DNA of 64,000 bases from contig DLSM01000010.1 in NCBI GenBank assembly GCA_002500135.1, positions 69,063 to 133,062 of the forward strand. Direction: 5' to 3'. This DNA comes from Christensenella sp. UBA7862. GTDB taxonomy: Bacteria; Bacillota; Clostridia; Christensenellales; UBA1242. Below, in pieces: positions 1,955 through 41,053 of the stretch. The notes beneath the pieces are model-generated. The model worked only from the letters and a program-made list of their open reading frames with translations. It was not told where the DNA came from and ran no database searches. The position numbers were made by a program, and so were the translations under genes. Position 1 is the stretch's first letter. Each line of letters starts with the position of its first letter.

Positions 1955-2084
1955 TACCGTGCTTTAATCTTTTGGCTTGATTGCAATTTTTACATTTTTT
2001 TGCAAAATTAGCCACTTTTTGGGGCAAGTCAACAAATGTTTCCATACTTTTTGTTTGACAAATATATTTTTAGGAGAGAATTTT

Positions 2085-5000
2085 ATGAAGAGACTTAAAA
2101 AATTGTTCGCTGCTGGGCTTATGACTGTGGTTACAGGATTTGCTTGCGTTGGGAGTGCTGTTGCAAACTTTGCAAAGGCGTTTTTCTCATTCGGGTCAGT
2201 TAATGCTGCCGTTGGGGAAAATAAAAACACAAACACAGATTCCTCAGTTGTCAGAGGAAAAATTGTTACTGTTAGCAACTTCCCATCAACAGAAAATTTG
2301 GAGAGAGGCACAAAAATAGATTTGCCTTACCTTGGAGCAGAGGGCAGTGTTGCAGACGTAGCAGTTGCTAAAGACCTATCTACTACAGGTTTTGAAACAG
2401 ATGACCAACTTTATGCTGAAATCACAAACCCATATGGCGTAAAACTTACAAAATATGACAAGGCAGTTTCAACACAAGGCGATTATGGCAAAACAATAGT
2501 CACAACTGCCGGCGAAGGGCAAGTTTCCTACAACGAAACATCAAAGAAACTTGAATTTACTCCAGCAATCGCAGGACCTTACAAAGTTCAATATTATGTT
2601 AAGAACGCTGCAGGCACTTGGACAAGTTCACCAGTCTATGAACTTTCTGTTCAAAAGACAACTTACGGAATGGAAATGGTGGAAAACTCTGCAACAGTTA
2701 TGCCATCAACTGTTAAAGTTGTTGAAACAAGTGCAAAAGTTACAGTTGGGCTTCCTCTTGTTTATGATAAAGAGGGCAATCTTGTAACAGACGACATCGT
2801 TTTGGGCGACAAATTTGCTGAAAATGGCGAAGACTATTATTATGTTGCAAAATATGAAAGCAGAGCAACAGAAGCAAGCCCACTTAAACTTGGCGATGTG
2901 ACAAGTGTTTCTCTTTCTGACACAGTTCAAAATACTTATGCTGAATACAAAACTTACTATGTTAGAAAAGTGAAAGCATCAGAAGTCAATGCAAACTACA
3001 GATTGTATGTTGAAGCGGGAAATCAAACAAATGCAACAATTTCTGGCACAAAGACTGCCCTTAACTTTGTTGACGCTTCAAAAGTTACAACTGAAGGTGT
3101 TGCTTATGACCTTAACGCTTATGAATTTAATGCAAGCAAGGGAATTAACAGTATTCAATATAAACTTTGCATGAACAACGATTCTGCAAACCCAGCAAAA
3201 CCAGAAACTTATCTTACAAGAACAATTGAAGGAAAGTCAACCTATGACAACTCCGAAGTGGAACTTGGTGCAACCCCAGCCAAAAAGTTCCTTTCAACAG
3301 ACCTTGAATATGGCGAAAAGACATATCTTCCAAAAGTAAGTGCTGTTGACCTCAAAAATAACAAATCTTCTGTCAACGCTTTCTACTACTATACAGTTAA
3401 AGTTAAGACAAAAGACGGATACTCAGTTGACAAAGTTACAATGGGCAAGGACGAAAAAGGCTTCTACTTTATCCCACTTGCAGCAACTGGCTCAACTTAT
3501 GAAATCTACTACAATGTTCGTGACTTCTATGGCAACACTGTGGAAGATGACGACAATGCAGATTATCCAAACCACTATCAAGTGTCAATTACAGATAGAA
3601 AGTCCCCAACAGTTTCTTTCGCAAGAAGCTTTAACGGACTTGCAAGCGATATGGACACTGAAGACCTTACAGATTATTCTTATTCAATTCCAACAAAGGT
3701 CAAAATTGGCGACACAATCGCAGTTCCAGCAATCTATGCAAGCGACAACAGCGGCATAAGTTCAATCACTCGTTCTATCCAATCAAAGGACAAAACCTTT
3801 AAGTCCACAAAGGAAGGCGAAACGACTTCAACCAACGTTTCTGGAACAATTTATCTTACAAGACAAGATGGTTCAACTGCAACGAGTTCGGGCTTTACTC
3901 TTGGACAAACTGGCTCTACAATCAATGACATCGTCACATTTAGTGATGTAAGTTATGAAAACGGCTTTAAAGTTGTTAACAATGAATTTACAAAACAAGA
4001 CGGCACAGCATTTGAAAATGACGAATATATGCGTGCAAAGAACTCTCAAGTTGCTTTTGTTAAGATTGACGAAAAAGTGTTTGGAAAGGGAACATACACC
4101 TTGACACTTAACGCAACTGACAAGGCTTTGAACTCCAACTCATCTTCAAGAACCTATACATTTGAAGTTGTGGAAGACGATGTTGACTTTGGCACACCAA
4201 CTGTAACTTATGGAAAATCTACTGTAAACAATGTTACAAAAGACCAAGAATTCAAAATTGCAGTTCCAAAAATCTCTGACAACCAAACAACAAACCCACT
4301 TGTCAGATACTATGCAGTTGTTACAAACGGCGCAAATGTAACTTATCACCAACTTTCACTTGACGACAGCAAATCTAACATTGTTGTTAAAATGAATGAA
4401 ACAGTTGGCGAAACAAATAAGACTTTGTATGACCTTGCAGCAGAAACAACTTCAAGAAATTTTGAAATCAGAGCATATGTCATGAACTATGGTTCAAAAT
4501 TCTATGAAACAAACAGAGTTGCTCTTGCTGGCGCAACAAAAGCTCAAGCAGAAGAACTTATTTTGAACTGGTTTAAAGACAATTATGACGCCAAAGCAGA
4601 TGAAGAAAAAGACAAATCAGTTGCAATGGCAAGTTACAAGATTTCTCTTAAAAACCTTGACGACAAGGAAGCACCTGTTTTTGTTAATGAAACGGGAACT
4701 ATCTTCGACCAAAACACAGTTGAAGTTGAACAATTTAAAGAAATTGAAGTTAACGGCGTGAAATTCACAGACAACACTTCAAGTGCTTATGTTTATGCAG
4801 AAGTTAGAGATTCAAAGGGCAACATCTATGACTATTCAGAAAGAGGCTCTTTGGTCATTAAAGAAGTTGGCGGAAAATATGAATACACATTCCCAGGAAT
4901 TAAATTCACCCCAACAAATGCAGACAAAGAAAACTATTATACTGTAACTTATATGCTTCAAGACAGAGGCGGAAACACAGTTTCTTACTCAGTTGTCCTT

Positions 5001-6290
5001 GTTCAAGCAAAAGACAAACAAGCTCCAGTTATTTCTGGCGTTGACAATAGTGACGCTACAATCGAACTTGGCGAAACATTGAACCTTTATCAAATTGTGG
5101 CTACTGACAATCAATCTTCAGAAGACGAAATTACTTTGAACTTTGAAGTTAAAGATCAAAACGGAAAATATGTTAACTCATGGTGCAATGACTTCAACAG
5201 AACATTCACTCCAGAAGCAGTTGGCACTTACACAGTTTCTGTTTCTGCAACAGATAAAGATGGCAACACTTCGACAAAGAGTTCATTTACGGTTAAAGTT
5301 CAAGACACATTGAAACCAGTTATCAATCTTATTGGTGACACAACTGACGAAATCTCATATTCTGAAGAAGATATTGCAACTTCTTTCCCACAAGTTTCTA
5401 TTCCAACATTCACAGTTGCTGACCAAAAACCAGAAAATTCAACAGTCACAAAAGGCGGAATTTTCGGTGCAACAGGGTCAATCAAACTCTCTGCTCCAAC
5501 AAAGGGAAGCGACAACAAGAGTGAATATGAATATGACATGCAAGGCAATTTGAAAGACGGAAAAGACAGATTTAACTTCACACGTGTCGGCGATGTGTTC
5601 AAATTTACACCTGATGCAAGAGGAACTTATACAATCACTTACACAGCAACTGACCTCAATGGCAACAAGGCTGAAAACGAAAGAACAATCACAATTCGTG
5701 TTGGCGACACTGAAGCTCCACAAATCATCTTGACTTCAACTCTCAAAAACATTCTTGATTCTGGCTTCGTGCTTGGCGAAAATACAACTTTGAAAATCAA
5801 CACAAATGCAAGAATTTACTCAGAAAGCAACTATGATTCCGAACACGTTTATTTGAAAGATAACGTTGCTGGAATTGAAGGCTTTAACTGCAAAGAATAC
5901 AAAAACCCAGATGACGAAAGCGAAGTGCTTTATCACTATTATACAGTTGGCGTAACAATCACTGACGGCAATAGTTCACGAGTTTCTTCAACATCTGACG
6001 ACAATGGATACTTGACATTTGACTTTAAGTCTGCTGGAACTTACACAATCACATTTACAGCAACAGACAAAGCAGGCAACAAGGAAACATGGTCAAGACA
6101 ATTTAAAGTTGTTGCTCCAGATTCAACAACATCTGAAAAGACAACAATAATTGGAACAATTCTTATTGTTATCTCTGCAATCGTTCTTGCTGGCGTTGTG
6201 CTTTACTTCATCAAAGGCACAAAGATTGCCAAAAACAGAAAGAAAGGCAAAAAAGTTGACAACAAGAAGAATGACAAAATTGAAGCTTAA
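2085..6290 (+). CDS. giant cell-surface protein (about 1400 aa) with signal peptide, many Ig-like (DUF5011/HYR-like) repeats, C-terminal TM anchor and polybasic tail
   Basis: ATG at 2085 after AGGAGAG. N-terminus MKRLKKLFAAGLMTVVTGFACVGSAVANFA looks like a signal peptide. Repeated modules have the form D..APV(I/F)...TD..GN....F.V.V. The C-terminus is TIIGTILIVISAIVLAGVVLYFIKG followed by KIAKNRKKGKKVDNKKNDK. No LPXTG motif. Confidence 0.8.
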   Translation: MKRLKKLFAAGLMTVVTGFACVGSAVANFAKAFFSFGSVNAAVGENKNTNTDSSVVRGKIVTVSNFPSTENLERGTKIDLPYLGAEGSVADVAVAKDLSTTGFETDDQLYAEITNPYGVKLTKYDKAVSTQGDYGKTIVTTAGEGQVSYNETSKKLEFTPAIAGPYKVQYYVKNAAGTWTSSPVYELSVQKTTYGMEMVENSATVMPSTVKVVETSAKVTVGLPLVYDKEGNLVTDDIVLGDKFAENGEDYYYVAKYESRATEASPLKLGDVTSVSLSDTVQNTYAEYKTYYVRKVKASEVNANYRLYVEAGNQTNATISGTKTALNFVDASKVTTEGVAYDLNAYEFNASKGINSIQYKLCMNNDSANPAKPETYLTRTIEGKSTYDNSEVELGATPAKKFLSTDLEYGEKTYLPKVSAVDLKNNKSSVNAFYYYTVKVKTKDGYSVDKVTMGKDEKGFYFIPLAATGSTYEIYYNVRDFYGNTVEDDDNADYPNHYQVSITDRKSPTVSFARSFNGLASDMDTEDLTDYSYSIPTKVKIGDTIAVPAIYASDNSGISSITRSIQSKDKTFKSTKEGETTSTNVSGTIYLTRQDGSTATSSGFTLGQTGSTINDIVTFSDVSYENGFKVVNNEFTKQDGTAFENDEYMRAKNSQVAFVKIDEKVFGKGTYTLTLNATDKALNSNSSSRTYTFEVVEDDVDFGTPTVTYGKSTVNNVTKDQEFKIAVPKISDNQTTNPLVRYYAVVTNGANVTYHQLSLDDSKSNIVVKMNETVGETNKTLYDLAAETTSRNFEIRAYVMNYGSKFYETNRVALAGATKAQAEELILNWFKDNYDAKADEEKDKSVAMASYKISLKNLDDKEAPVFVNETGTIFDQNTVEVEQFKEIEVNGVKFTDNTSSAYVYAEVRDSKGNIYDYSERGSLVIKEVGGKYEYTFPGIKFTPTNADKENYYTVTYMLQDRGGNTVSYSVVLVQAKDKQAPVISGVDNSDATIELGETLNLYQIVATDNQSSEDEITLNFEVKDQNGKYVNSWCNDFNRTFTPEAVGTYTVSVSATDKDGNTSTKSSFTVKVQDTLKPVINLIGDTTDEISYSEEDIATSFPQVSIPTFTVADQKPENSTVTKGGIFGATGSIKLSAPTKGSDNKSEYEYDMQGNLKDGKDRFNFTRVGDVFKFTPDARGTYTITYTATDLNGNKAENERTITIRVGDTEAPQIILTSTLKNILDSGFVLGENTTLKINTNARIYSESNYDSEHVYLKDNVAGIEGFNCKEYKNPDDESEVLYHYYTVGVTITDGNSSRVSSTSDDNGYLTFDFKSAGTYTITFTATDKAGNKETWSRQFKVVAPDSTTSEKTTIIGTILIVISAIVLAGVVLYFIKGTKIAKNRKKGKKVDNKKNDKIEA

Positions 6291-16116: not shown

Positions 16117-19100
16117 TTATCTTTTCTTTTTGCCTTGTGGCTTATCTTCAGTTTTTGTTTCTTTAGGATTTTTCAAAGCGTTAAATTCTTTTTCAACTTG
16201 CTTTTTCTTGCTTTTGATTTCTGACCTTTCGCTTGATTTAATGTTTTGATTGCTTTGAAGATAAGTTACTGCAGATTGCAAATATTCCATTCTATCTTTA
16301 ACTTTGTTAAGTTTCTTGGCATATTCGCTATAAAGTTTTCCGTCAACTGCTTCGTCACCCGTAGATTTTGAATCATACTCAGCTTTTATGCTGTCATATT
16401 CTTCTTGAAGGGAAGCAAGTTGAGCATTAAGACCTTCAAGGCTGTTTTCTCTTTTAGATTTAAGTTCTGCTTTAATTTGTTTTTCGTTGATTGCTTTTGG
16501 AGATTTCTTGTATTCTGCTTTCTTAGTCTTCTCATGTTTTTGTTTTTTAGGAACACGTCTGAGGAGATATCCTGCGATTGCAAAGCCAAGTGCTACAACA
16601 AGAAGAAGGGAAGAAGCAATAATCCAAATGTTAACATCTGAGGAATGTGAGTGTTCTGTTGTTGTGTCGTCTGTTGTTGTGTCGTCAGTTTTTTCAACCA
16701 CTTTGGAAACAATTGTGTAATCGTCAGAAGTTTTGCCGACATATTCGCTTGAGTCAACGTCTGTAACTGTGTAACTGTCAATGTACATCTTTCCAGTTGC
16801 TGGTTCGTCAGAAGTTCCAAGAGAGAATAGAAGTTTTACATTTTGATCGGCTTCTGCAAGGATATAAATTGTGTAGAGTTTGTAGCCATTTTCTTCGTCA
16901 TCTTCTTCCACTTCTGGGGTAACAATTTTCTTAAAGACATTTGTGTTTTCTTCGTCAACGACAATGTTCCCGTCAGAGTCAAGTGTAACAACTTCCATTC
17001 TGCCAGCACCTTCTGATGAAAGTTCATCAGTTCTTATCCATGCACAGAATTTGTAATAACTTCCTTTTTTGAGGGAATAGGTGTAACTTGTTGCAAGGGT
17101 TTGATAACTGTTTTCAAATGTGTTATGAAGTGTAAGGACTGATGTTGATGACTTTCTTGTTGGAAGGTCTGGGTCGTCAAGTTTGTTGTAAATTTTTGCT
17201 GAACATTCATTTTTGTTTGAGATTTCTGTTATGTCAAATCCAAGTGCGTCTTGTGACCTTTTATTTCCGTCCATTCTTGCTGTGTCAAACTTGTTTTCAT
17301 AAAGGTTGACTGAAAGGCTTGTTGAATTTGCAACAACTTTTTCAGAAGCAAGATAGCCTGCGCAATCGAAGAATGCACTTTGTGCTTCGCTTGAACTTCC
17401 ATGAACGCCAACGACCATTTTTACATCTGTTGATGAAATGCCGTTTGTAAGATAGAAGTAAAGTTGTTTCCAATCGCCATTTGTGTTGATATTGTCGAAG
17501 ATTGCAATAGTTTTGTTATTGCTATCCACAAATTTCACATATGCTTTTGCGTTTTTATAAGTGCTTACGCCCACAAAGAAGGTGACTTTGCTTTGACTAG
17601 AATTGCTGTTTGAAGAAACTGTAACTGCACTGCTTGTGTAGGAAACGTCTTCTGCAGTTGAACTTCTGACCATAAGCACATTTTCTGTGTCTTCTGCATA
17701 GTCGCCTTTGTTAAGATTGTAGAAATCTTTGTAGAAAGCATAGTTTGCGCCTGGGTTTGTTATTGTGCTGTATCTGTCTTGTGGATTTCTTGACCCATCA
17801 GCAAGGAAGTGTCCAATTCTAACAATTCCGCTTGAAAGTGTTTCGGAAGTTGATTTTGAAACTGTCCAACTTGTTGGAACGAGTGGATAATTCATAACTA
17901 TTGAGCCGTCTGTGCCGATTGTGTAACTGTTTGAAAGGGAATCTATAGTTGCAAAATTGAATTGACCGTTTTTGATGTTTGATGTGTCTGCCATGCTGGA
18001 CAAATCAAGTGTGTTCGATGAAGAAGTTTTTGAAGACAATTCGCTTGAAGTAACAGCCTCAAGAACAATGTTATCCACAACAGCCCAGCCTTTTTCTGTT
18101 CCAAGTGACAACTTAAGAGAAACTTTTTCGTCACTTTCGCTGCTGCCTTTGATGTAGAAACTTACAACAGAGAAGCCGTTTCTTGCGTCTGTGCTTGAAG
18201 AACCTTTAAGAGTAGATTGTGAGATTGCTTTTGAAGCAAGTTTTTCGTTTGTTGGGGTGAGGGTTGCTGTAAGTCCAGATGTTTCACCGCCTGTTTTCAA
18301 AACAAATGACAATCTGTAAAGCCCGTGTTGATAAATTGTAAGAGTGTTGTCTTTAGCATTGTCTTTGTCGTCTGTAACTGATGAAATTGTTTTTGCTTCT
18401 GCAACAGCAGCACTATTTACAAAAAACAGAGATTTGCTCGTTGATGCGTTTCCGTCAAAGACGTCTGCATTGTTGCCAGTTGTTTCAAAAATTGAATTTA
18501 TTTGTGAGTTGATATAATCTTTTGTGTTTACATAAATGTCGCTTAAACCATTGCCACCTTCCACTGTCCAAAAGTCAAGGTCTTGTTCAAAGTCGGAATT
18601 CTTAAAAGAGGTGAGGGCAGTTCTTTGGAAACTCTTTTTTGCACTTGTGCCAGCGTTTGCTGCGTCAAGATAATCTGCTTCCGCCACTTCCGAAACTACA
18701 ATGTGGTCATAGAACACAGCGCCAGCATCATTGCCTTTTTTAAATTTTAGCTGCAAAGTGAAACTCTTTGCTTCAAATGAGTCTGTTTGAACATAAAGAG
18801 TATATTTGCTCCATTCGCTTGTTGTGACGTTGAGTGACATATCAAGTTCTGGGGAATAGATTGTGCCAGAGCCGTTGCCTTGTGTCATTGCATACACGCT
18901 TATTTCATAAAACTTGTCCGCTTCAAGGGTTGCAGAGTCGCTTGTAACATATCCACTTGTTTGCCCAGTTGCATTGCTTGCACCACGGAACATAAGGATA
19001 TAGTTATCTGGGTCAGAAATGTTTGTTGATGGCTTTGGCTTGTTTGTCAGCCCATAACTGTTTGAACTGCTGGTGTCAATGACACCGCATGAAACATCTT

Positions 19101-19335
19101 CTGGTACAGAAACTGTCCAGTTGTTGCCGTCAACAGACGCAGGGAAGTTTTCGCCCCTATCTGTCTTAGTCTTAAAATCTCCATTTTTAATGATGTCGGT
19201 TTTTACAGATTGATAGTATGCTGCTTGCACGCTTGGATGAGAGTATCTGAGCATTGGCACGCCAGACAGCACACATGTTGCAGAAAGTGCAAGTGCTACA
19301 AGTGCTTTTTTAGTTTTTCCGAGATTGTGTTTCAT
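16117..19335 (-). CDS. giant surface protein (1072 aa) with signal peptide, CBM4_9/galactose-binding-like repeats, TM helix and about 150-aa cytoplasmic basic coiled-coil tail
   Basis: ATG at 19335 (GAAGG RBS). MKHNLGKTKKALVALALSATCVLSG looks like a signal peptide. Repeated N(G/S)DFE...W modules occur (IKNGDFK, KNSDFEQDLDFWTVEGG, IKNGQFNF). TM segment is VNIWIIASSLLLVVALGFAIAGYLL, followed by a Lys/Glu-rich heptad-like tail. Confidence 0.75.
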   Translation of the reverse strand: MKHNLGKTKKALVALALSATCVLSGVPMLRYSHPSVQAAYYQSVKTDIIKNGDFKTKTDRGENFPASVDGNNWTVSVPEDVSCGVIDTSSSNSYGLTNKPKPSTNISDPDNYILMFRGASNATGQTSGYVTSDSATLEADKFYEISVYAMTQGNGSGTIYSPELDMSLNVTTSEWSKYTLYVQTDSFEAKSFTLQLKFKKGNDAGAVFYDHIVVSEVAEADYLDAANAGTSAKKSFQRTALTSFKNSDFEQDLDFWTVEGGNGLSDIYVNTKDYINSQINSIFETTGNNADVFDGNASTSKSLFFVNSAAVAEAKTISSVTDDKDNAKDNTLTIYQHGLYRLSFVLKTGGETSGLTATLTPTNEKLASKAISQSTLKGSSSTDARNGFSVVSFYIKGSSESDEKVSLKLSLGTEKGWAVVDNIVLEAVTSSELSSKTSSSNTLDLSSMADTSNIKNGQFNFATIDSLSNSYTIGTDGSIVMNYPLVPTSWTVSKSTSETLSSGIVRIGHFLADGSRNPQDRYSTITNPGANYAFYKDFYNLNKGDYAEDTENVLMVRSSTAEDVSYTSSAVTVSSNSNSSQSKVTFFVGVSTYKNAKAYVKFVDSNNKTIAIFDNINTNGDWKQLYFYLTNGISSTDVKMVVGVHGSSSEAQSAFFDCAGYLASEKVVANSTSLSVNLYENKFDTARMDGNKRSQDALGFDITEISNKNECSAKIYNKLDDPDLPTRKSSTSVLTLHNTFENSYQTLATSYTYSLKKGSYYKFCAWIRTDELSSEGAGRMEVVTLDSDGNIVVDEENTNVFKKIVTPEVEEDDEENGYKLYTIYILAEADQNVKLLFSLGTSDEPATGKMYIDSYTVTDVDSSEYVGKTSDDYTIVSKVVEKTDDTTTDDTTTEHSHSSDVNIWIIASSLLLVVALGFAIAGYLLRRVPKKQKHEKTKKAEYKKSPKAINEKQIKAELKSKRENSLEGLNAQLASLQEEYDSIKAEYDSKSTGDEAVDGKLYSEYAKKLNKVKDRMEYLQSAVTYLQSNQNIKSSERSEIKSKKKQVEKEFNALKNPKETKTEDKPQGKKKR

Positions 19336-19510
19336 AAATGACCTTCTTATACAATATTGTTGAACCAAAATAGGCTCATTTTTTTGTTTTTTGAGTTAAT
19401 TTGAAACTCATAACTCTTGCATTATATAATAACTGGGCAAAAAATGCAATCAATTTTTGTTATTTATTACTATATAAAATATTTTTCTAGTAAATTAACA
19501 TAATAGAATT

Positions 19511-30827: not shown

Positions 30828-32129
30828 ATGAGAAGATTTTGGGAGAAGGCTAGAGTTTGGATGTTATGCATAAACTACACGCTTGTTATGGCGTTGCTGT
30901 GCATAGTTATTTACGGTGCGACCGCTCAAAGGACTTCTTCAAATGTGACTGTAACTTACAATCGCCCAACTTACACTGCAACTTTTGACCCAAATGGTGG
31001 GACTTGTGACACTGCAAGCAAAAACATAAAACTTGGTGACAATTATGGCACTCTTCCAACTCCAACTAGAACGGGCTATGACTTCTCGGGTTGGTTTGCG
31101 GGAAGTTCAGCTGTGTCAAGCGGGACACAATACAAAACAGTCGGCAACACAACTTTGACTGCAAGTTGGAGTGCTAAATCTTACACAATAACAAGCGGAA
31201 CAAACCTCCCTGGCTCAAGCATTTCCGTCCCCTCAAGTGGAAAATTCGGGAGTGGCATTTCAATCTCTTCAAGCGGCAGTGCCACGGGATATAACTACTC
31301 ATTAACAAATATAAAAATTTATTCGGGTAACTCCACAAACGGAACTCTGCTTGCAACAATAACTTCAACTTCTTCCTCTTGGACAATGAGCGGAACATAT
31401 TATTCGTCAATTTATGTTTATGCCACTTGGACAAGAAGTGCAAAAACATATACACTAACACTTGACCGTCAAAGCGGAAGTGGTGGTTCTTCAACTGCAA
31501 CAGCAACATACAATGCCACTGTTCCAAACATTTCTATTCCAACCAGAAACGGCTATACTTTTGGCGGATACTACACTGGCACAAATGGCTCGGGAACACA
31601 ATACTACAATGCATCTGGCACAGGTCTTAAAACCTGGACAACAGACGGCGGTGCAACACTTTATGCCAAGTGGACTGCCATTCCAACGACTTTAACTGCA
31701 ACTTCATATACTATTTCCGTCCCTCGAGGTACAAGCACTTACACTGCAGGATGGATACAACTTAATCTTGGTGGCGGTGGAGGCAAGTGGACATTGCAAT
31801 GCACCAATTTAAGTATAAAGGCAGGTGTAAGTGATTTTGAAGTTATACGTTATGATAGTGATTATTCAAATCAGAGATATGTAAAGAGTAGCACATCTGA
31901 TGCCCAATTCCACACAAAACAAACAGAAAATGCGAACAAAGTAACTGGCGAAACAACAAATTCTACTATTTGGTTGCATCATGATTTGTCTGGTGTTTCG
32001 TATATTGACAGTGACGGAACAAAAGAACGACAAAGAATGTATTACACATTCACAATTCGTGCCACGAGTGCTTATAACGGAACATACAAAGATATTCAAG
32101 TTCAAATGATTTATTTGTATGACGAATAG
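30828..32129 (+). CDS. surface-protein family paralog 1 (intact frame): N-terminal signal anchor, Listeria-Bacteroides (Flg_new) repeats, unknown C-terminal domain
   Basis: [34 protein letters not shown]... then [11 protein letters not shown]...[15 protein letters not shown] and YTLTLD...[14 protein letters not shown]...LYAKWT repeats. The N-terminal 90 aa are collinear with the genes at 35990 and 38761. Confidence 0.8.
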
Positions 32130-34452: not shown

Positions 34453-35379
34453 ATGGAAAAATTTTTGTTGACTGACGCACTTAAAAATGGATACGCCGTT
34501 GGTGCTTTTAACTTTGGAACAATGGAAGTTTTAAAGGCAATTATTCTTGGGGCAGAGAGCAAAAACTCTCCCGTTATTTGCCAAATTTCTGAAAGTGCAA
34601 TGAACTTTGTGGGTGATGAATATCTCAAAAACCTCATTAAGGCTGCGAGAAAAACTTGCCACGTGCCAGTTAGTTTTCACCTTGACCATGGCAGGTCTTT
34701 TGAAATGGCAAAAAGAGCAATTAAGGCAGGTTGCGACTCGGTGATGATTGACGCTTCAATGCTTCCTTATGAAGACAATGTTGCAATCACCAAAAAAGTT
34801 GTAGATTATGCACACGCAAAGGGAGTGTTTGTTGAAGGGGAACTTGGCTCCATTGCTGGCATAGAAGACGAACTGAAAGTTGAAGATAAAAACAGTTTTT
34901 ACACTTCTCCAAAGCAAGCAAAAGACTTTGTAAAACGCACTGGTGTCGATAGCCTTGCAATAGCAATCGGCACAAAACATGGGGCATATAAATATTCTGG
35001 TGACGCAAAACTTCGCTTTGATATTTTGGAACAAATTCAAAAGGAAATTCCAAATGTTCCACTTGTTTTGCATGGAGCAAGCGGAGTGGAGAAAAGTGAT
35101 GTTGACGCACTTTATGACCTTGGGGTTGATATTCGTGGAGCGAAGGGAATTCCAGAACCATTCCTTCAAAAAGCATGCGGTATGCACATTTGCAAAGTAA
35201 ATGGTGATACCGACCTTAGAATTTCTTATTTGAAGGGAATTTTGGGAGATATTAAAAACAATAACAAAAACATTGACTACAGAAAATATCTCGCCAGCGG
35301 AATGAACGAAATTTCAAAAATTGTCGCACACAAGATTGATGTTTATGGCAGTGCAAACAAAGCACCTAAACAATCATAA
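34453..35379 (+). CDS. fba: class II fructose-1,6-bisphosphate aldolase
   Basis: YAVGAFN, HLDHG, and the GELG and LVLHGASG motifs of class II FBA/tagatose-bisphosphate aldolases. Confidence 0.93.
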   Translation: MEKFLLTDALKNGYAVGAFNFGTMEVLKAIILGAESKNSPVICQISESAMNFVGDEYLKNLIKAARKTCHVPVSFHLDHGRSFEMAKRAIKAGCDSVMIDASMLPYEDNVAITKKVVDYAHAKGVFVEGELGSIAGIEDELKVEDKNSFYTSPKQAKDFVKRTGVDSLAIAIGTKHGAYKYSGDAKLRFDILEQIQKEIPNVPLVLHGASGVEKSDVDALYDLGVDIRGAKGIPEPFLQKACGMHICKVNGDTDLRISYLKGILGDIKNNNKNIDYRKYLASGMNEISKIVAHKIDVYGSANKAPKQS

Positions 35380-35794
35380 CAACAATCAAAAACAGCGAGC
35401 ATACAACCGCCAAAACGGACAAAACTATGCCAATAATTCCAATGGACTTGCGATTGAGCCTGCATTGCATAACGCCAAACACAAAGCCATAAATTGCAAG
35501 GATAATTGAAATTACAATTCCACTGAAAATATATATAACAAGCATCAAAACATATGACATTCCAATTACATCAAGTTCCATAAGATTTGCAATCAAGCAA
35601 CACCCCGACACAAGCAGAGCAATTATGGACAGTGTAAGCGACAACTTGCCATATTTTTTGATGTTTTTTCTTTCTTCCTCTGGCTTTTCCTTGTCGGCAT
35701 TGTATCCGTTTACAATATTCCTAAACAAGAAAAACCCCGTAATCTTTCCCACCGAGTCCTTTTCATCAAGTCCATTTTTGCTTCTTAACTCCAT
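35366..35794 (-). CDS. small polytopic membrane protein (142 aa)
   Basis: ATG at 35794 lies 6 nt downstream of a G9 run that acts as the SD sequence. Three to four hydrophobic helices. The 3' end overlaps the fba stop region. Confidence 0.55.
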   Translation of the reverse strand: MELRSKNGLDEKDSVGKITGFFLFRNIVNGYNADKEKPEEERKNIKKYGKLSLTLSIIALLVSGCCLIANLMELDVIGMSYVLMLVIYIFSGIVISIILAIYGFVFGVMQCRLNRKSIGIIGIVLSVLAVVCSLFLIVVMIV

Positions 35795-35800
35795 TTTCTA

Positions 35801-35809
35801 CCCCCCCCC
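35801..35809. repeat. homopolymer C9 (+) / G9 (-) forming the RBS of the minus-strand gene 35366-35794
   Basis: Read directly: ...tcta ccccccccc atttt... On the minus strand this is TGGATAAAAT-GGGGGGGGG-TAGAAA-ATG. Confidence 0.95.
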
Positions 35810-35901
35810 ATTTTATCCATATTTTGTGCAGAAATTGAATAATTAAAACAGAGCCAGTGCCTTTTATTAAAATTTGTTGCTAAAAAATATCTATCAAAAA
35901 C

Positions 35902-35930
35902 TTGACAACTTGAGCAATATATTTTAAAAT
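35902..35930 (+). promoter_or_regulatory. consensus sigma-A promoter of paralog 2
   Basis: TTGACA (35902-35907), 17 nt, TAAAAT (35925-35930). Confidence 0.55.
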
Positions 35931-35989
35931 TTTTACAGAAAATATTTTAGAATATGAGGCAAAACTTGACGATAAAGGGAGAAGTGGAA

Positions 35990-37574
35990 ATGAGATTTTG
36001 GGATAAAGTGCGAGTTGGAATGTTGTGCGTAAATTATACACTCGTCATGGTTCTTTTGTCCATTATCATTTTCGGAGCAACTCAACAAAGAGCCACAGGA
36101 AATGTGTCTGTAAGGTATTCTAGACCCTCTTACACCGTCACTTTTGACCCAGCGGGGGGGGGGGGTATCTCCCAGCCAAAAGACCGTTAAATTAGGCGAT
36201 TTATACGGTGATTTGCCTGTTCCGACAAAAACGGGTTATTCTTTTGTCGGTTGGAAATACAGCAATGAACTTGTCACATCAACAACCAAAAACTTGACCC
36301 AAGGAGACCACACCTTAACCGCTTCATGGGGACATTCAGTTAAATTTGACTATAACAACGGGACATTATCAAACTCACTTTCTCCAACTTATGCTGGGGA
36401 AGTCGGCACAACAACATCACTTCCAAGCACACTTAACCCAACCTACTCGGGGCACACCTTTGCGGGCTGGCATTATGGAAAAAATTTAATTGAGCCAACA
36501 ACATTCACTGGCTCAAATTTTATCGCACTCGGCCGTGACTATATGTTCACAGACAAGTTCACTGTCGTAGTCAGGGCATATATGGATGATTGGACGAAAT
36601 TTGGTACAAAAAAAACCACCCTTATCAGTTGCACTGAAAGGGGTGGGTGGTCGTTGAGTAATGAGATTGACTATAATGCTGTCAACTATATTTCATTTGC
36701 TTTTATGAGTGAAAAGACAAATTCATATATACACACATATAGTTCTATAACTTTTTCCCAAATGTCCAGTGGTTATCACACATTTATTGGGACTTTTGAT
36801 GGCTCATATGCACGCTTGTATATTGATGGAATTTTGGTCGGGACAAGTGCAAATGCTTCAACTACAATAAAATATGATTCATCAAATGGAATATTTGTTG
36901 GAGCTGAAGCAGAAGCGAATACAGTTTCTCCTTATGGTTATTTTTTTACGGGAAAGGTTGATTATGTATCAATAGAAAATAGCACAATAGACGAAGCAAA
37001 AAATATAGGAGCTAACTTAATAACAGGAACCAATTTTGATGGGTCAAATTATATTTCACTTGGGAAAGCATATAAGTATAAAAGTAAGATAGCTATAACA
37101 ATAAGGGCTTCAATGAATGACTGGTCAAAATTCTCTTTAATGTCAATGATTTCTTGCACCAATGGCGGTGGCTGGGCTATTGAAGCAAAGCAAGATGTAA
37201 TTTTATTTGCTGCATATGATAGTAGTAGCAATGATTACAATCGTGCATTTTCTTCCATAAAGACATCTGAACTAAAAAGTGGATATCATACTTTCGTTGG
37301 CATATTTAATGGCGAAGATTTAAAATTATATATAGACGATGAACTTGTGGCAAATGGGACAAAGTTTGGCTCAAAAAACATTAAATATTATCCCGACAAT
37401 GGGATATTTGTTGGGGCTGAGGCGGGCAATAATACTTCATCTCCAGAAGTAGATTATTATCAGTATTTTAAGGGAACAATAAGCTACGTTTCTATTGATA
37501 ACACATTTGTGGCAAATAAAAATAGTTATATTTATCAAGACTTTGATGTTGTTGCAACAGCAATTTGGAACTGA
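35990..37574 (+). CDS. surface-protein family paralog 2, frameshifted at a G12 tract (phase-OFF as sequenced): signal anchor + Flg_new repeats + two tandem LamG/concanavalin-A-like domains
   Basis: ORF-track pieces 35954-36190 and 36144-37574 overlap at the G12 run. Removing one G joins them: ...YTVTFDPAGGG-VSPSQKTVKLGDLYGDLPVPTKTGYSFVGWKY... The span is 1585 nt, so minus 1 gives 528 codons. The C-terminus has two copies of a ...ISC(T)(E/N)(R/G)GGW...SGYHTF(I/V)G.F(D/N)G...LYID...GIFVGAEA... module. Confidence 0.8.
36154..36165 (+). repeat. poly-G tract G12 inside coding sequence (candidate slipped-strand phase-variation switch)
   Basis: Counted directly: agc + 12 G + tatctccc. G11 or G14 would be in frame; G12 terminates after 11 more codons (stop codon 36188-36190). 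Confidence 0.95.
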
Positions 37575-37608
37575 AAATGTATTTTAAAACAAATCTCTCA
37601 CAAATCCC

Positions 37609-37637
37609 TTGACAAGTGATAAAAAGTGTGGTAAAGT
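37609..37637 (+). promoter_or_regulatory. consensus extended -10 promoter of the rplU operon
   Basis: TTGACA (37609-37614), 17 nt, TGgTAAAGT (37629-37637). Confidence 0.6.
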
Positions 37638-37644
37638 GGCGGTA

Positions 37645-37721
37645 TCCGCATGGAAAAGGTTAAAAAGTGGGCTTCTGGCTTCACCTTAACAGCGAGTTTG
37701 GAGGATAAGGAGGAAAACAAA
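37645..37721 (+). ncRNA. probable ribosomal protein L21 leader (5' UTR regulatory element of rplU-prp-rpmA)
   Basis: About 80-nt leader between the promoter and the rplU ATG. The position matches the L21-leader element described in Firmicutes. The fold was not verified. Confidence 0.4.
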
Positions 37722-38033
37722 ATGTATGCTATCGTTCTTTCTGGCGGAAAGCAATATAAGGCAGAAGAAGGCAAGTTTATTGATGTTGAAAAACTTGACG
37801 GAAATGTTGGAGATAAAGTAAATCTCGATGTGCTTTGCGTGTCAGACGAAAAAGGTCTTGAAACAGGCAAACCTGTTTTGAGCAAGGTTAAGTGTGAAGC
37901 AGAAATCATTCTTCAAGGAAAACAAGACAAAATCATCGTTTTCAAATACAAAGCAAAGAAGAATGAAAGAAAGAAACAAGGTCACAGACAACCTTTCACC
38001 AGAGTTAAAATATTGTCGATAAAGAGAGTTTAA
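37722..38033 (+). CDS. rplU: 50S ribosomal protein L21
   Basis: MYAIVLSGGKQYKAEEG... ATG follows AAGGAGG. The ORF-track start at 37650 is an upstream extension. Confidence 0.95.
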   Translation: MYAIVLSGGKQYKAEEGKFIDVEKLDGNVGDKVNLDVLCVSDEKGLETGKPVLSKVKCEAEIILQGKQDKIIVFKYKAKKNERKKQGHRQPFTRVKILSIKRV

Positions 38034-38038
38034 TTTTT

Positions 38039-38368
38039 ATGACAAAAATTACGGTCACTAAAAATAATGATGAAATCGTGGAACTGGAATGTGACGGACA
38101 CACCGATTATGGCGTGAACGGCGAAGACATTGTGTGCAGTGCATTATCCAGCATTGTCCAAACAGCAGTTTTGGGGCTTATGATGGTCGCTGGCATAAAT
38201 GTTTCACTAAAAAGGGACGAAAATAGGGGATATCTTAAACTCGTTCTCCCACAAAACATTTCGCAAGAAGCAAGACACGATGCAAATATAATCTTAAACA
38301 CAATGATGTGTGGAATAAGTGACCTGAGGGAAGGTTTTTCAGATTTTATAGAACTGGAGGTTAAGTAA
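38039..38368 (+). CDS. prp: ribosomal-processing cysteine protease Prp (YsxB family)
   Basis: 109 aa between rplU and rpmA. GHTDYG...DIVCSALS (His/Cys dyad). Confidence 0.88.
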
Positions 38369-38369
38369 G

Positions 38370-38663
38370 ATGTTTATTCAGTTGCAATTGTTCGCTCACA
38401 AAAAGGGCGGTGGTAGCACAAAGAACGGACGTGACAGTCAAGCCAAAAGACTTGGTGTCAAATGTGGTGACGGTCAACACGTTCTTGCTGGCAATATTAT
38501 TGTTCGCCAACGTGGCACAAAATTTTACCCAGGCGACAATGTAGGTCTTGGAAAGGACTACACATTGTTTGCACTTCGTGACGGAAAGGTGAAATTTATC
38601 ACAAAACACGGCGACAAAAAATATGTCACAGTGGTTGAAGAAACTGCAAAGAAAGCAAAATAA
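38370..38663 (+). CDS. rpmA: 50S ribosomal protein L27 (with cleavable N-terminal extension)
   Basis: [31 protein letters not shown]. The N-terminal propeptide before AHKK is the Prp substrate. Confidence 0.95.
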
Positions 38664-38666
38664 ATG

Positions 38667-38696
38667 GAAAATTCCTCGAAATGGGGAATTTTTTTC
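38667..38696 (+). terminator. intrinsic terminator after rpmA
   Basis: AAAATTCC...GGAATTTT hairpin followed by a T-run. Confidence 0.55.
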
Positions 38697-38725
38697 TTGA
38701 CAAAATTTAACATATATCCTACACT
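38697..38725 (+). promoter_or_regulatory. promoter candidate of paralog 3
   Basis: TTGACA (38697-38702), 17 nt, TACACT (38720-38725). It abuts the rpmA terminator. Confidence 0.45.
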
Positions 38726-38760
38726 TTTTGAGAATAATAGAACTATGGAGGAATTTTAAA

Positions 38761-39643
38761 ATGACTAAAAGGGAAAGATTTGTGTTGTGGCTTAATAGGT
38801 TTTATCACAAGCAAAATAAAATAACAATCTGTGTCCTATACACCCTTATTATGGCTATCCTTGGCGTCATTATTTATGGGGCAACTCATCAAAGTTCCTC
38901 AAGCAATGTTTCTGTCAAATATACAGTCCCATACTACACAATTACTTTTGACCCAAACGGCGGAACCTTCGAAAATGCAGGGGGGGGGGGTATCCTCTAA
39001 GCAAGTAAAACTTGGTGATACTTACGGCGATTTGCCACTGCCCAGCAGACCGGGTTATAGCTTCAACGGTTGGTATGAAGAAGCCCTTGTAACATCAGAA
39101 TCAGTCCTTTCCACCCCATGCGACAAAACCCTAGTCGCCGAATGGAATGATGGGATTCCCGTTGATATGAGAAATTGGAGTTACTCTTCTATAACCTTTG
39201 GGTGTTTATCAAATTATACAATGTCCCAAAATAAGAATGTTTTTGACTTTACTGGCACAAACTATTGGGAGATTTTCTACATCGGAATAAGTTTGGAAGC
39301 CAACAAAACCTATTCAATTACATTCGACTATGTTACTCCAGCCTTTGGCACCCCAACCGATATAGAACATGGTGGGAATGGAGCAATGTTTGCAGGTGTC
39401 GCATCAGAAATAGATGCTGGTTGGTTTTGGAATGAGGGGCGTGAGAATCTGCAATTGGATAAACACATAGCGATTTATCCAATACAACCCAGCACGAGTA
39501 AAAAAGCGATTATGTCCTTTACTGCACCAGAAACAAAAACATATTATTTTTTCTTAAATTTTGGATATGTAGTGGATTATACAATTTATCACTTTGAATT
39601 CAGTAACTTCACCCTATACACTCACCAATGCTCTTTTGGTTGA
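38761..39643 (+). CDS. surface-protein family paralog 3, frameshifted at a G11 tract (phase-OFF as sequenced): signal anchor + Flg_new repeat + unknown about 190-aa C-terminal domain
   Basis: ATG at 38761 after GGAGG. ORF-track pieces 38728-39000 and 38831-39643 meet at the G11 run. Removing one G gives ...[49 protein letters not shown]... The span is 883 nt, so minus 1 gives 294 codons. Confidence 0.8.
38980..38990 (+). repeat. poly-G tract G11 inside coding sequence (candidate slipped-strand phase-variation switch)
   Basis: Counted directly: aatgca + 11 G + tatcctctaa. G10 or G13 would be in frame; G11 stops 3 codons later (38998-39000). Confidence 0.95.
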
Positions 39644-39672
39644 TAGTATAAACGATGGGGAAGAAAAATATA

Positions 39673-39713
39673 AATAATATAATAGGTTTTGGCTTGTTAT
39701 ATTATTTTTTTTT
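39673..39713 (+). terminator. weak A/T-only hairpin terminator after paralog 3
   Basis: AATAATATAA (39673-39682) pairs with TTATATTATT (39697-39706), followed by a T-run. Confidence 0.4.
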
Positions 39714-39725
39714 GCTGGGGGGATA

Positions 39726-39989
39726 ATGGTTTCGTTTTTAGAGGAGATTGCAAAGGTTTCGGGGGTTGACCCAAGTGTTGTGGTGGGGAGCAGCAGGGTA
39801 TTGTATCTTGGTGGCAAGGTTGTTATGATTGAAGGCAAGACCAAGTTAATTGAGATGTCAAATGAACTTGTAAAAGTAAAACTTAAGCGGGGCATGGCGG
39901 TTGTTAGTGGCAAAAACTTGAAACTTAAAAACCTTAATCTTGAAAGCGTTATGGTAGTTGGGGATATTGCAGAATTTCAGATTTGTTAA
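39726..39989 (+). CDS. yqfC: sporulation protein YqfC (YabP family)
   Basis: 87 aa. The pattern ...VVMIEGKTKLIEMSNELVKVKL...VSGKNLKLKNLNLESVMVVGDI resembles YabP/YqfC. It lies upstream of yqfD as in Bacillus. Confidence 0.7.
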   Translation: MVSFLEEIAKVSGVDPSVVVGSSRVLYLGGKVVMIEGKTKLIEMSNELVKVKLKRGMAVVSGKNLKLKNLNLESVMVVGDIAEFQIC

Positions 39990-40135
39990 AATAAATGTGT
40001 AGTCAAGTAGAAATTACAATAGAGTAGTAATTCAGACTGGACTACCCCCTCGTCTTGCTAACGCAATCCACTCCCCCTTACAATGGGGAGCCTTCAAAAA
40101 AAAATAACATATTAGTTTATAAAAGTGGGGGATAT

Positions 40136-41053
40136 ATGACGACTTATGAAGTTGTGGGATTAAACTTCCCAAAGTTTTTAAGCGAGATTGAAAGGAGAAA
40201 TATATCCTTAAACAGCCTTGTCAAACTTTCGCATGACAAATTTTGTGTGGAAGTTGCTTTGGCACAGAAAAAGAAGTTTTTGAACCTTTGCTCGCTTCTT
40301 AACATGGAAGTGGTGGAAAAGAAAATTCCCGTTTATGAGCGTGTTTTCCGTGGGATAAAATGCCATGTGCCACTAACTATTTTTGTTGCTGTTTGCGTGG
40401 CTGTTCTTTTGTTTTCGCAAATGTTTGTGTTCAGAATTGAAGTCTTTGGCGAAACAACTGTAGGCGAAGATGAGATTGTTTCCGTCTTAAAACAAAACGG
40501 CTTTGACACATGGAAAATGCGGGGAAGTTATGACACGCAAGAAGTGGAGCGGGTGCTTGTATCAAACATTCCAAAGATAAGTTTTGCTTCATGCGTTGTG
40601 CGTGGCGGGACATTGGTTGTAAATGTCTATGAAAAAATTGAGGCGGAAAAATCTTTAAGTGCGGGCAAGCCCGTTGTTGCACCTTGCGACTTGATAATTG
40701 AAGAAATTTCTTGCACCAGCGGAACAGTGGTCAAACATCAAGGTCAAACAGCAAAGGCGGGTGAAAGCATTGTTGAAAATTTTGTTATGCTAGGGCAAAC
40801 GAAAATTGACATTCCCGCACATGCAACATTTACTGCAAAAGTGGAGCAGAGTATAAGTCAATTTTTGACACAAAAGCCACAAGATGATATGGATATAAAA
40901 AAAGTGGTTGAAGAAAACAAAAGAATGTTGTATAATATGTTATCAGAAGCAAAACTTCTGGATAATATTGAAGAAGAAACTGAACTTTTGGAAACGGAAA
41001 ACGGGTGCTTGGTGATAAGCCGTTTTAGAACTAAAATTGAAATTTCTTCATAA
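40136..41053 (+). CDS. yqfD: sporulation protein YqfD
   Basis: ATG at 40136 after GTGGGGGA. One central TM (LTIFVAVCVAVLLF). Position yqfC-yqfD-ybeY-era-recO matches the Bacillus yqf cluster. Confidence 0.65.
   Translation: MTTYEVVGLNFPKFLSEIERRNISLNSLVKLSHDKFCVEVALAQKKKFLNLCSLLNMEVVEKKIPVYERVFRGIKCHVPLTIFVAVCVAVLLFSQMFVFRIEVFGETTVGEDEIVSVLKQNGFDTWKMRGSYDTQEVERVLVSNIPKISFASCVVRGGTLVVNVYEKIEAEKSLSAGKPVVAPCDLIIEEISCTSGTVVKHQGQTAKAGESIVENFVMLGQTKIDIPAHATFTAKVEQSISQFLTQKPQDDMDIKKVVEENKRMLYNMLSEAKLLDNIEEETELLETENGCLVISRFRTKIEISS

Follow-up and report, generated by a model that had tools for sequence, protein, structure and literature searches.

A candidate poly-G phase-variation switch in a family of predicted surface proteins from uncultured gut Clostridia

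We analyzed a 64,000-nucleotide stretch of contig DLSM01000010.1 (Christensenella sp. UBA7862, assembly GCA_002500135.1), hereafter referred to as the window, and in particular a gene within it, gene A (35990–37574, forward strand), whose coding sequence contains a run of exactly 12 consecutive G (36154–36165). Our analyses indicate that gene A is probably (we would put the probability at roughly 0.8) a phase-variable contingency gene, and that it and its paralogs form a lineage-specific family, predicted to encode surface or secreted proteins, in an uncultured genus of Clostridia from the human gut that resembles the Christensenellales. A preliminary description of this DNA, made from its letters alone, had read the run as a slipped-strand contingency tract. 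That proposal is supported by the polymorphism in tract length that we find among strains, by the presence of the tract throughout a gene family, and by the open and constrained reading frames that lie behind it. Indeed, the locus displays those features of a contingency gene that can be assessed from sequence, namely an over-long repeat, toggling of the reading frame, ON and OFF alleles, and a downstream coding sequence that has not decayed.

The poly-G tract of gene A and its length variants

As sequenced, translation of gene A from the ATG at 35990 yields 66 codons (MRFWDK...FDPAGGGGISQPKDR) that encode, in order, a basic n-region, a hydrophobic helix (MLCVNYTLVMVLLSIIIFGA) and then SRPSYTVTFDPAGGGG, before it runs into a stop codon at 36188–36190. 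The frame that follows the tract is open to 37574, the mechanically called open reading frame (ORF; 36144–37574) being 476 amino acids (aa) long, and deletion of one G from the tract fuses FDPAGGG to VSPSQKTVKLGDLYGDLPVPTKTGYSFVGW, resulting in a protein of 527 aa. When the length of the tract was varied in silico, G8, G11 and G14 gave full-length (ON) products of 526–528 aa; G9, G10, G12, G13 and G15 were OFF, and lengths that were not ON yielded products of 65–68 aa. The position of the run, the 66-codon frame with its stop codon, the intact 527-codon frame at one G fewer, and the assignment of G11 and G14 as ON and of G12 as OFF had all been put forward in the preliminary description; the run lies exactly where it had been placed, translation and frame tests confirm the rest, and ON alleles of 11 and 14 nucleotides (nt) are also found in natural contigs. 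The suggestion that the repaired junction completes a Flg_new repeat is likewise borne out. In particular, the repaired protein matches the Pfam family Flg_new (PF09479) in two stretches with a score of 64.2 bits (cutoff 27), and the alignment spans the junction, with residues 48–111 matched to profile positions 1–64 of 65. The repaired protein also matches Laminin_G_3 (PF13385) in two stretches (45.9 bits; cutoff 27.6), and its C-terminal part is predicted to consist of two LamG/ConA-like lectin domains, which may bind carbohydrate.

The tract lies 164 nt into the 1.58-kb gene, close to its 5′ end, as is usual for tracts that act as switches (Orsi et al. 2010, PMC2831843). A GGGAG Shine–Dalgarno-like motif precedes the ATG at 35990, and a consensus scan places a promoter-like site 60 nt upstream of it. 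In the source annotation the leader fragment of gene A appears as a separate 78-aa product (P0125) alongside the 476-aa fragment. We rejected the TTG at 36144 as the true start of the 476-aa ORF: no GGAGG-type sequence is visible just upstream of it, and the resulting product would lack the signal/anchor helix. (Note that this helix is conserved in every paralog.) Nor can the tract be attributed to an ORF on the opposite strand: upstream there are just short mechanical ORFs (51–53 aa), and none of them crosses the tract itself. A scan of 35000–40500 against Rfam found no known RNA element or leader family.

A chance or codon-usage origin of the tract could be ruled out by a census of homopolymeric runs, by Markov simulation and by glycine codon usage. 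The window has a GC content of 36.9%, against the figure of about 40–47% that the preliminary description gave for sampled coding regions. Among its G and C runs, one reaches 6, and lengths of 7, 8 and 10 are missing; its only longer runs are a C9 (35801–35809), the G12 of gene A and a G11 (38980–38990), all of which fall within 3.2 kb. In 200 first-order Markov simulations of the window, runs of at least 9 arose seven times in total, one of them of at least 11. GGG makes up 15.7% of the glycine codons, and of the seven Gly-Gly-Gly tripeptides found elsewhere in long ORFs, none is encoded as GGGGGGGGG (G9). Nor is the tract dictated by the protein, since GGG is a minority glycine codon and since paralog 1, another member of the family in the window, is intact without the 15-nt insert (G10+TATCC) that supplies five codons (GGGVS). 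Runs of G or C are, in general, under-represented in prokaryotic genes (Orsi et al. 2010, PMC2831843).

To compare alleles of the tract, we retrieved metagenome contigs and contigs of metagenome-assembled genomes (MAGs) from the same organism by exact-protein look-ups with L27 and FBA, and took the gene A tract as the stretch between GC and TATC in contigs that were 99.0–100% identical to the window. The tract is 11 nt in L006 (A+G10; ON, 539 aa called), 12 nt in the window (G12; OFF) and in L107 (A+G11; OFF), 13 nt in L002 and L003 (A+G12; OFF), and 14 nt in L109 (A+G13; ON, 540 aa called). Over 9.6 kb, L109 (15x coverage) shares 99.97% identity with the window, and it carries gene A ON and its paralog, gene B, OFF on the same contig. 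Gene B, which contains the G11 run mentioned above, is G10 (ON, 293 aa called) in L004 and L005, G12 in L003, and G11 (OFF) in the window and in eight other assemblies that come from different assemblers and projects. Moreover, over 8500 bp the sole difference between L005 and the window is one G in gene B (G10 vs G11), and L004 differs from the window by one substitution and the two tracts. In strain comparisons over 8–12 kb, indels occurred solely in the two G tracts and in one A9 run, which marks the two G tracts as indel hotspots. C9, T9 and A9 runs are the same length in the window and in the near-identical Illumina assemblies L004, L005 and L109. The preliminary description had proposed that tract lengths be compared in related genomes, and had set switching against a fixed in-frame length and against a fixed out-of-frame length accompanied by decay of the downstream ORF. 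What we find are lengths of 11, 12, 13 and 14 nt, both ON and OFF, with frames that are open.

Over 5.5 kb, every difference between L006 and the window falls in or next to the gene A tract. The three substitutions (36151, 36155 and 36184) all lie within 30 nt of the tract, and one of them is an A/G difference that interrupts or extends the run (GCA+Gn vs GC+G12), a pattern that points to a local rise in mutation or recombination. The A9 run (40096–40104) is intergenic, lies upstream of yqfD, and is A8 in L002 and L003.

Paralogs, selection and competing explanations

The tract is found at the homologous codon in gene B and in four or more further paralogs from other parts of the genome. A third chromosomal locus (gene C), identified by a protein search together with contig look-ups and situated between an S1-domain gene and rpmB, carries the same module and tract in the states G10 (ON, 558 aa), G11 (OFF) and G8 (OFF). 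We scanned GTDB species representatives with an alignment of the N-terminal part and obtained 80 loci; eight of these, all in two MAGs, have the module, along with the tract wherever the contig extends to the site, and the other 72 Flg_new loci, which come from other taxa, have no G or C run of at least 8 at the site. The MAG GCA_050872785.1 (“Clostridia bacterium”) contains at least seven tract-bearing paralogs (G10–G12), and both module and tract are kept in CAKVNA01, a Hadza gut MAG of a more distant species (80–85% nt identity in the flanks compared). A scan of JGI metagenomes for the DNA pattern G8+TATCCTCTAAG..AGT returned four contigs, all from sample ERZ808245, whose strain is essentially identical to the window and has three further tract-bearing paralogs, two of them G10 and ON and the third ended by the end of its contig at the tract. 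Altogether, three or four species-level lineages have at least 6–7 paralogs per genome with a G8–G13 run at the same position, and the paralogs share a common N-terminal module but differ in their C-terminal domains. The phenomenon thus appears to extend beyond the single gene of the preliminary description, the switch being, as far as the sequences indicate, a conserved feature of a multi-copy family. More distant homologs are labeled Christensenellales by their sources.

In a sister lineage (L110 and L111; aligned segments 88–96% nt identical) genes A and B are absent: the gene for a 142-aa protein abuts rplU and rpmA abuts yabP, in place of the intervals 35830–37580 and 38663–39626 of the window, and no G or C run of at least 7 is present in the region. 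The absence of genes A and B from this lineage marks the tract-bearing genes as accessory insertions that flank a ribosomal-protein operon. Paralog 1 is kept in the sister lineage (L110).

The frames downstream of the tract are open in every allele, over 466–484 or 216–218 codons, and all eight of the OFF alleles examined are repaired by deletion of a single G. For these downstream parts we estimated the ratio of nonsynonymous to synonymous substitution rates (dN/dS) by the method of Nei and Gojobori. The ratio was 0.15–0.27 for gene A (dS 0.29–1.27), 0.26–0.39 for gene B and 0.14–0.19 for gene C, and so ranged over the three genes from 0.14 to 0.39, with dS up to ~2. The tract has thus stayed pure while synonymous sites saturated, and the coding sequence behind it is under purifying selection. 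Together these features rule out a pseudogene in decay and argue for mutability itself being maintained.

These findings are consistent with a mechanism in which the G run would gain or lose single G·C pairs during replication by slipped-strand mispairing. At 11 or 14 nt, gene A would be read through, with three or four glycines in a loop of the first Flg_new repeat, to give the full protein of 527–540 aa; at other lengths translation would end after ~66 codons and only a short leader peptide would be made. As sequenced, the window copies of gene A (G12, +1) and gene B (G11, +1) are both OFF. The module that the members share consists of the basic n-region, the signal/anchor helix, and a first Flg_new (an InlB B-repeat) with a pure poly-G run of ~10–13 bases in a loop, followed by TATC, and independent switching of the paralogs would result in mixed surface phenotypes that might let a population hedge against immunity, phage or changes in its glycan niches. 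We infer slippage as the cause of the length changes, their reversibility and a high switching rate, and likewise a surface location, a function as adhesin or lectin, and the selective agent. We also lean, with modest confidence, toward the view that a dedicated “switchable leader” cassette (helix, Flg_new and the 15-nt G10+TATCC insert) has been copied onto at least seven genes, each of which toggles independently to give ~2^7 surface phasotypes, and that these genes make up a simple-repeat “phasome”, which would be the first to be described in commensal Clostridia of the gut, a group whose phase variation, as far as it is known, is mostly by invertons. Genes with the cassette come and go between sister lineages, as genes A and B do.

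Several observations weigh against gene A being a phase-variable surface protein gene. Its surface location rests on domain content (hydrophobic helix, Flg_new and LamG-like domains), and no sortase, SLH or other wall anchor was seen in its product. The C9 run of the window is invariant in nine assemblies, and so not every long G or C run in the genome is variable. The polymorphism that we describe is, on the sequences at hand, between assemblies, and the hallmark of phase variation would be heterogeneity within one population. Most sampled alleles are OFF and +1 is over-represented, an excess that fits contingency loci but is also compatible with systematic miscounting or with recoding. Furthermore, six of about nine assemblies break exactly at the gene A tract and have end tails of G13–G15 that are unreliable, and several of the contigs that break there have only 3–8x coverage. 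(Contigs end at their 3′ side in L103–L108, at their 5′ side at the tract in L004, L005 and L007 or 23–139 nt past it in L008–L010, and in L098.) Such breaks could reflect heterogeneity or technical difficulty. In addition, the window allele (GC+G12, with no A) is assembled through the tract in no other contig, L104 sharing the GC+G context but ending inside the run, and miscounts by Illumina sequencing or by assemblers are a known problem at runs of 10 or more G.

The frequent breaks with their G13–G15 tails, the low coverage of several contigs and the unreplicated window allele would all be explained if the homopolymer had simply been miscounted, the real tract being always in frame (11 or 14 nt), gene A constitutive, and the other lengths errors. 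We consider this unlikely. The out-of-frame G11 of gene B recurs in the window and in eight assemblies, with two others giving G10 and one G12, and in L109 (15x coverage) a single contig carries an ON gene A together with an OFF gene B. A general homopolymer error in the window was rejected, the housekeeping ORFs (uvrA, uvrB, gap, fba, ppdK, era and others) being full length with no frameshift among them and the control runs C9, T9 and A9 agreeing with those of L004, L005 and L109. Nor does miscounting alone account for pure runs of G10–G13 at one codon position in at least seven paralogs from several species. Alternatively, +1 might be the normal genotype, and transcriptional slippage or ribosomal frameshifting on GGG_GGG_G might set the level of expression with no heritable switch. 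The preponderance of OFF alleles, mostly +1, and the purifying selection on downstream frames that are mostly OFF would be in keeping with such recoding, and in other bacteria long runs of A or T are an established site of slippage, for which PMC2831843 cites the case of Buchnera. We nevertheless regard recoding in place of a switch as distinctly improbable, given that alleles are in frame at four or more loci and that the Rfam scan found no stimulatory RNA element or family nearby. In addition, the length of the tract is not fixed, in-frame (0), +1 and +2 states all being present in near-identical strains, whereas programmed recoding sites are normally conserved in length. Leaky slippage could, however, coexist with switching at the level of the DNA.

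That gene A is a plain pseudogene, killed by a frameshift at a mutation-prone run and now decaying, we find very hard to credit. The gene is indeed split as sequenced (66 aa and a 476-aa ORF), and genes A and B are dispensable in the sense that the sister lineage does without them. However, the downstream frame is free of stop codons for 468 codons in DNA of 37% GC, dN/dS between alleles is 0.15–0.27 at a dS of ~0.3–1.3, in-frame alleles occur in strains 99.9% identical to the window, and the tract is the only lesion, which removal of one G repairs.

Comparison with known switches

Contingency genes with poly-G or poly-C tracts, which vary by slipped-strand mispairing in 5′ coding regions and together form “phasomes”, are known from Campylobacter jejuni, Helicobacter pylori, Neisseria and Haemophilus. 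Gene A and its paralogs resemble these in having a pure G run of ~8–13 early in surface-related ORFs, with frame toggling by one base, and in comprising several independent loci that could yield combinatorial phasotypes, close strains differing mainly at the tracts. They differ in that the host is an uncultured, spore-former-like gut commensal of the Clostridia with 37% GC rather than a Gram-negative pathogen, and in that all of the tracts are at one homologous codon in the N-terminal module of a single paralog family rather than in unrelated genes. Closest in architecture are families with the same repeat in the leader of each paralog, such as the Opa proteins of Neisseria, in which CTCTT repeats are located in the leader-peptide coding region of ~11 paralogs; the Vlp and Vsa families of Mycoplasma are comparable. 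As in Opa and Vlp/Vsa, a surface multigene family has the same repeat switch in or near each leader (in those families few copies are usually ON at a time, with combinatorial variation of the surface as the result). Here, however, the repeat is a mononucleotide G run rather than a pentamer or a promoter poly-A, it lies past the hydrophobic helix, within the first Flg_new domain, and the variable parts are whole C-terminal domains (LamG or folds that are not known) rather than loops of one barrel.

The nearest documented case in the Firmicutes is the 5′ A7 tract of inlA in Listeria monocytogenes, where frameshifts truncate a surface protein and have been read by the authors as reversible inactivation (Orsi et al. 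2010, PMC2831843). As in gene A, a homopolymer is located near the 5′ end of a gene for a Firmicute surface protein, with an internalin or B-repeat relationship; but the inlA tract is a single, short A7 of low mutability with no tract-sharing paralogs, whereas here G10–G13 runs occur in at least seven paralogs and in many length states among near-clonal strains. A full-text literature search, the coverage of which is incomplete, so that this is absence of evidence only, found neither an account of this family nor a case of phase variation by homopolymers in Christensenellales or other gut Clostridia. This outcome fits, without proving it, the remark in the preliminary description that such loci are less described in Clostridia-like Firmicutes. 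The mechanism is textbook; what is new is the host taxon, the protein family and the switch cassette shared by its members.

In gut commensals, phase variation by invertons is known for the capsules and S-layer of Bacteroides and for cwpV and flagella of Clostridioides difficile. The presumed purpose is alike, namely the stochastic ON/OFF switching of surface structures in gut bacteria; the means differ, in that invertons depend on site-specific inversion by a recombinase and gene A would depend on a homopolymer (inverted repeats and recombinase genes around genes A and B were not searched for). Most of what has been mapped of phase variation in the gut microbiota consists of DNA inversions, chiefly in Bacteroides, and simple-repeat switches are easily discarded as homopolymer errors or split pseudogenes, as with the two fragments called for gene A in the source annotation. 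If gene A and its paralogs are indeed switched in this way, analyses of gene content and strain tracking in such MAGs would arrive at systematically wrong counts of functional genes. Breaks of contigs at tracts would carry information, possibly as a cheap flag for hypervariable tracts, even if the lengths at contig ends are not to be trusted. Commensals would then share the hedging strategy of Campylobacter and Neisseria, presumably against immunoglobulin A (IgA), phage or shifting glycan niches.

Gene B, paralog 1 and neighboring sequences

The window is bacterial chromosome, and the genes that we identified in it include uvrB, uvrA, gap, fba, rplU-prp-rpmA, yabP, yqfD, ybeY, era and ppdK. 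Gene A sits between a divergent gene for a 142-aa membrane protein and the rplU operon, and gene B (38761–39643, forward strand) is a paralog of gene A directly 3′ of rpmA. A GGAGG motif is located 9 nt before the ATG of gene B at 38761. Its G11 run makes gene B OFF by +1; G7, G10 and G13 are ON, with G10 giving 293 aa. Flg_new scores are 45.0 bits for gene B and 64.8 bits for paralog 1 (cutoff 27), and the C-terminal domain of gene B has no Pfam match.

Table 1. Coordinates of gene A, gene B, paralog 1 and associated features in the window
Feature	Position	Strand	Remarks
Paralog 1	30828..32129	+	Same signal/anchor helix and Flg_new module; intact, no homopolymer
142-aa membrane-protein gene	35366..35794	-	C9 run at its 5′ side
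Promoter-like site, gene A	35902..35930	+	TTGACA, 17 nt, TAAAAT; 11/12 consensus matches
Gene A N-terminal frame	35990..36190	+	Basic n-region, hydrophobic signal/anchor helix, start of Flg_new repeat 1
G12 homopolymer, proposed slipped-strand switch	36154..36165	+	In frame: Gly3 and first base of Val codon
Gene A downstream frame	36166..37574	+	468 codons: rest of Flg_new 1, second Flg_new, two LamG/ConA-like domains
Promoter-like site, gene B	38697..38725	+	TTGACA, 17 nt, TACACT; just past rpmA stop
Gene B N-terminal frame as sequenced	38761..39000	+	79 codons, stop 38998-39000
G11 homopolymer, gene B	38980..38990	+	Homologous position in first Flg_new repeat (...FENA-GGG-VSSKQVKLGD)
Gene B downstream frame	38991..39643	+	216 codons: rest of Flg_new and C-terminal domain

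The C-terminal half of gene B (39180–39515) is only ~58% identical in aa sequence to its counterpart in L001 (GCA_050872785.1), with flanking DNA at 94–95%. Such divergence points to either allele replacement or diversifying evolution in the C-terminal domain of gene B, which is predicted to be exposed.

Two large ORFs of the window have no long homopolymer: that at 1977–6290 encodes 1437 aa with Ig-like, PKD and Y_Y_Y domains, and that at 16117–19368 (reverse strand) encodes 1083 aa with no Pfam match. Upstream of rplU, at 37609–37637, there is a promoter-like TTGACA-17-TAAAGT with an extended −10 TG; a search of 37575–37650 at the Rfam gathering threshold found no L21 leader or other RNA family.

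The C9 run, a G9 on the minus strand, ends 6 nt before the ATG at 35794 of the membrane-protein gene, at the position of a Shine–Dalgarno sequence. Nine assemblies of the same species all have it unchanged, and both L001 and the sister lineage (L110) lack it; it may be a ribosome-binding or 5′ untranslated-region element rather than a switch. Just upstream of yabP, or at its start, a composite T9-GCT-G6 (39705–39722) has the form T6 followed by G8 in L014, and so this homopolymer also appears to drift in length.

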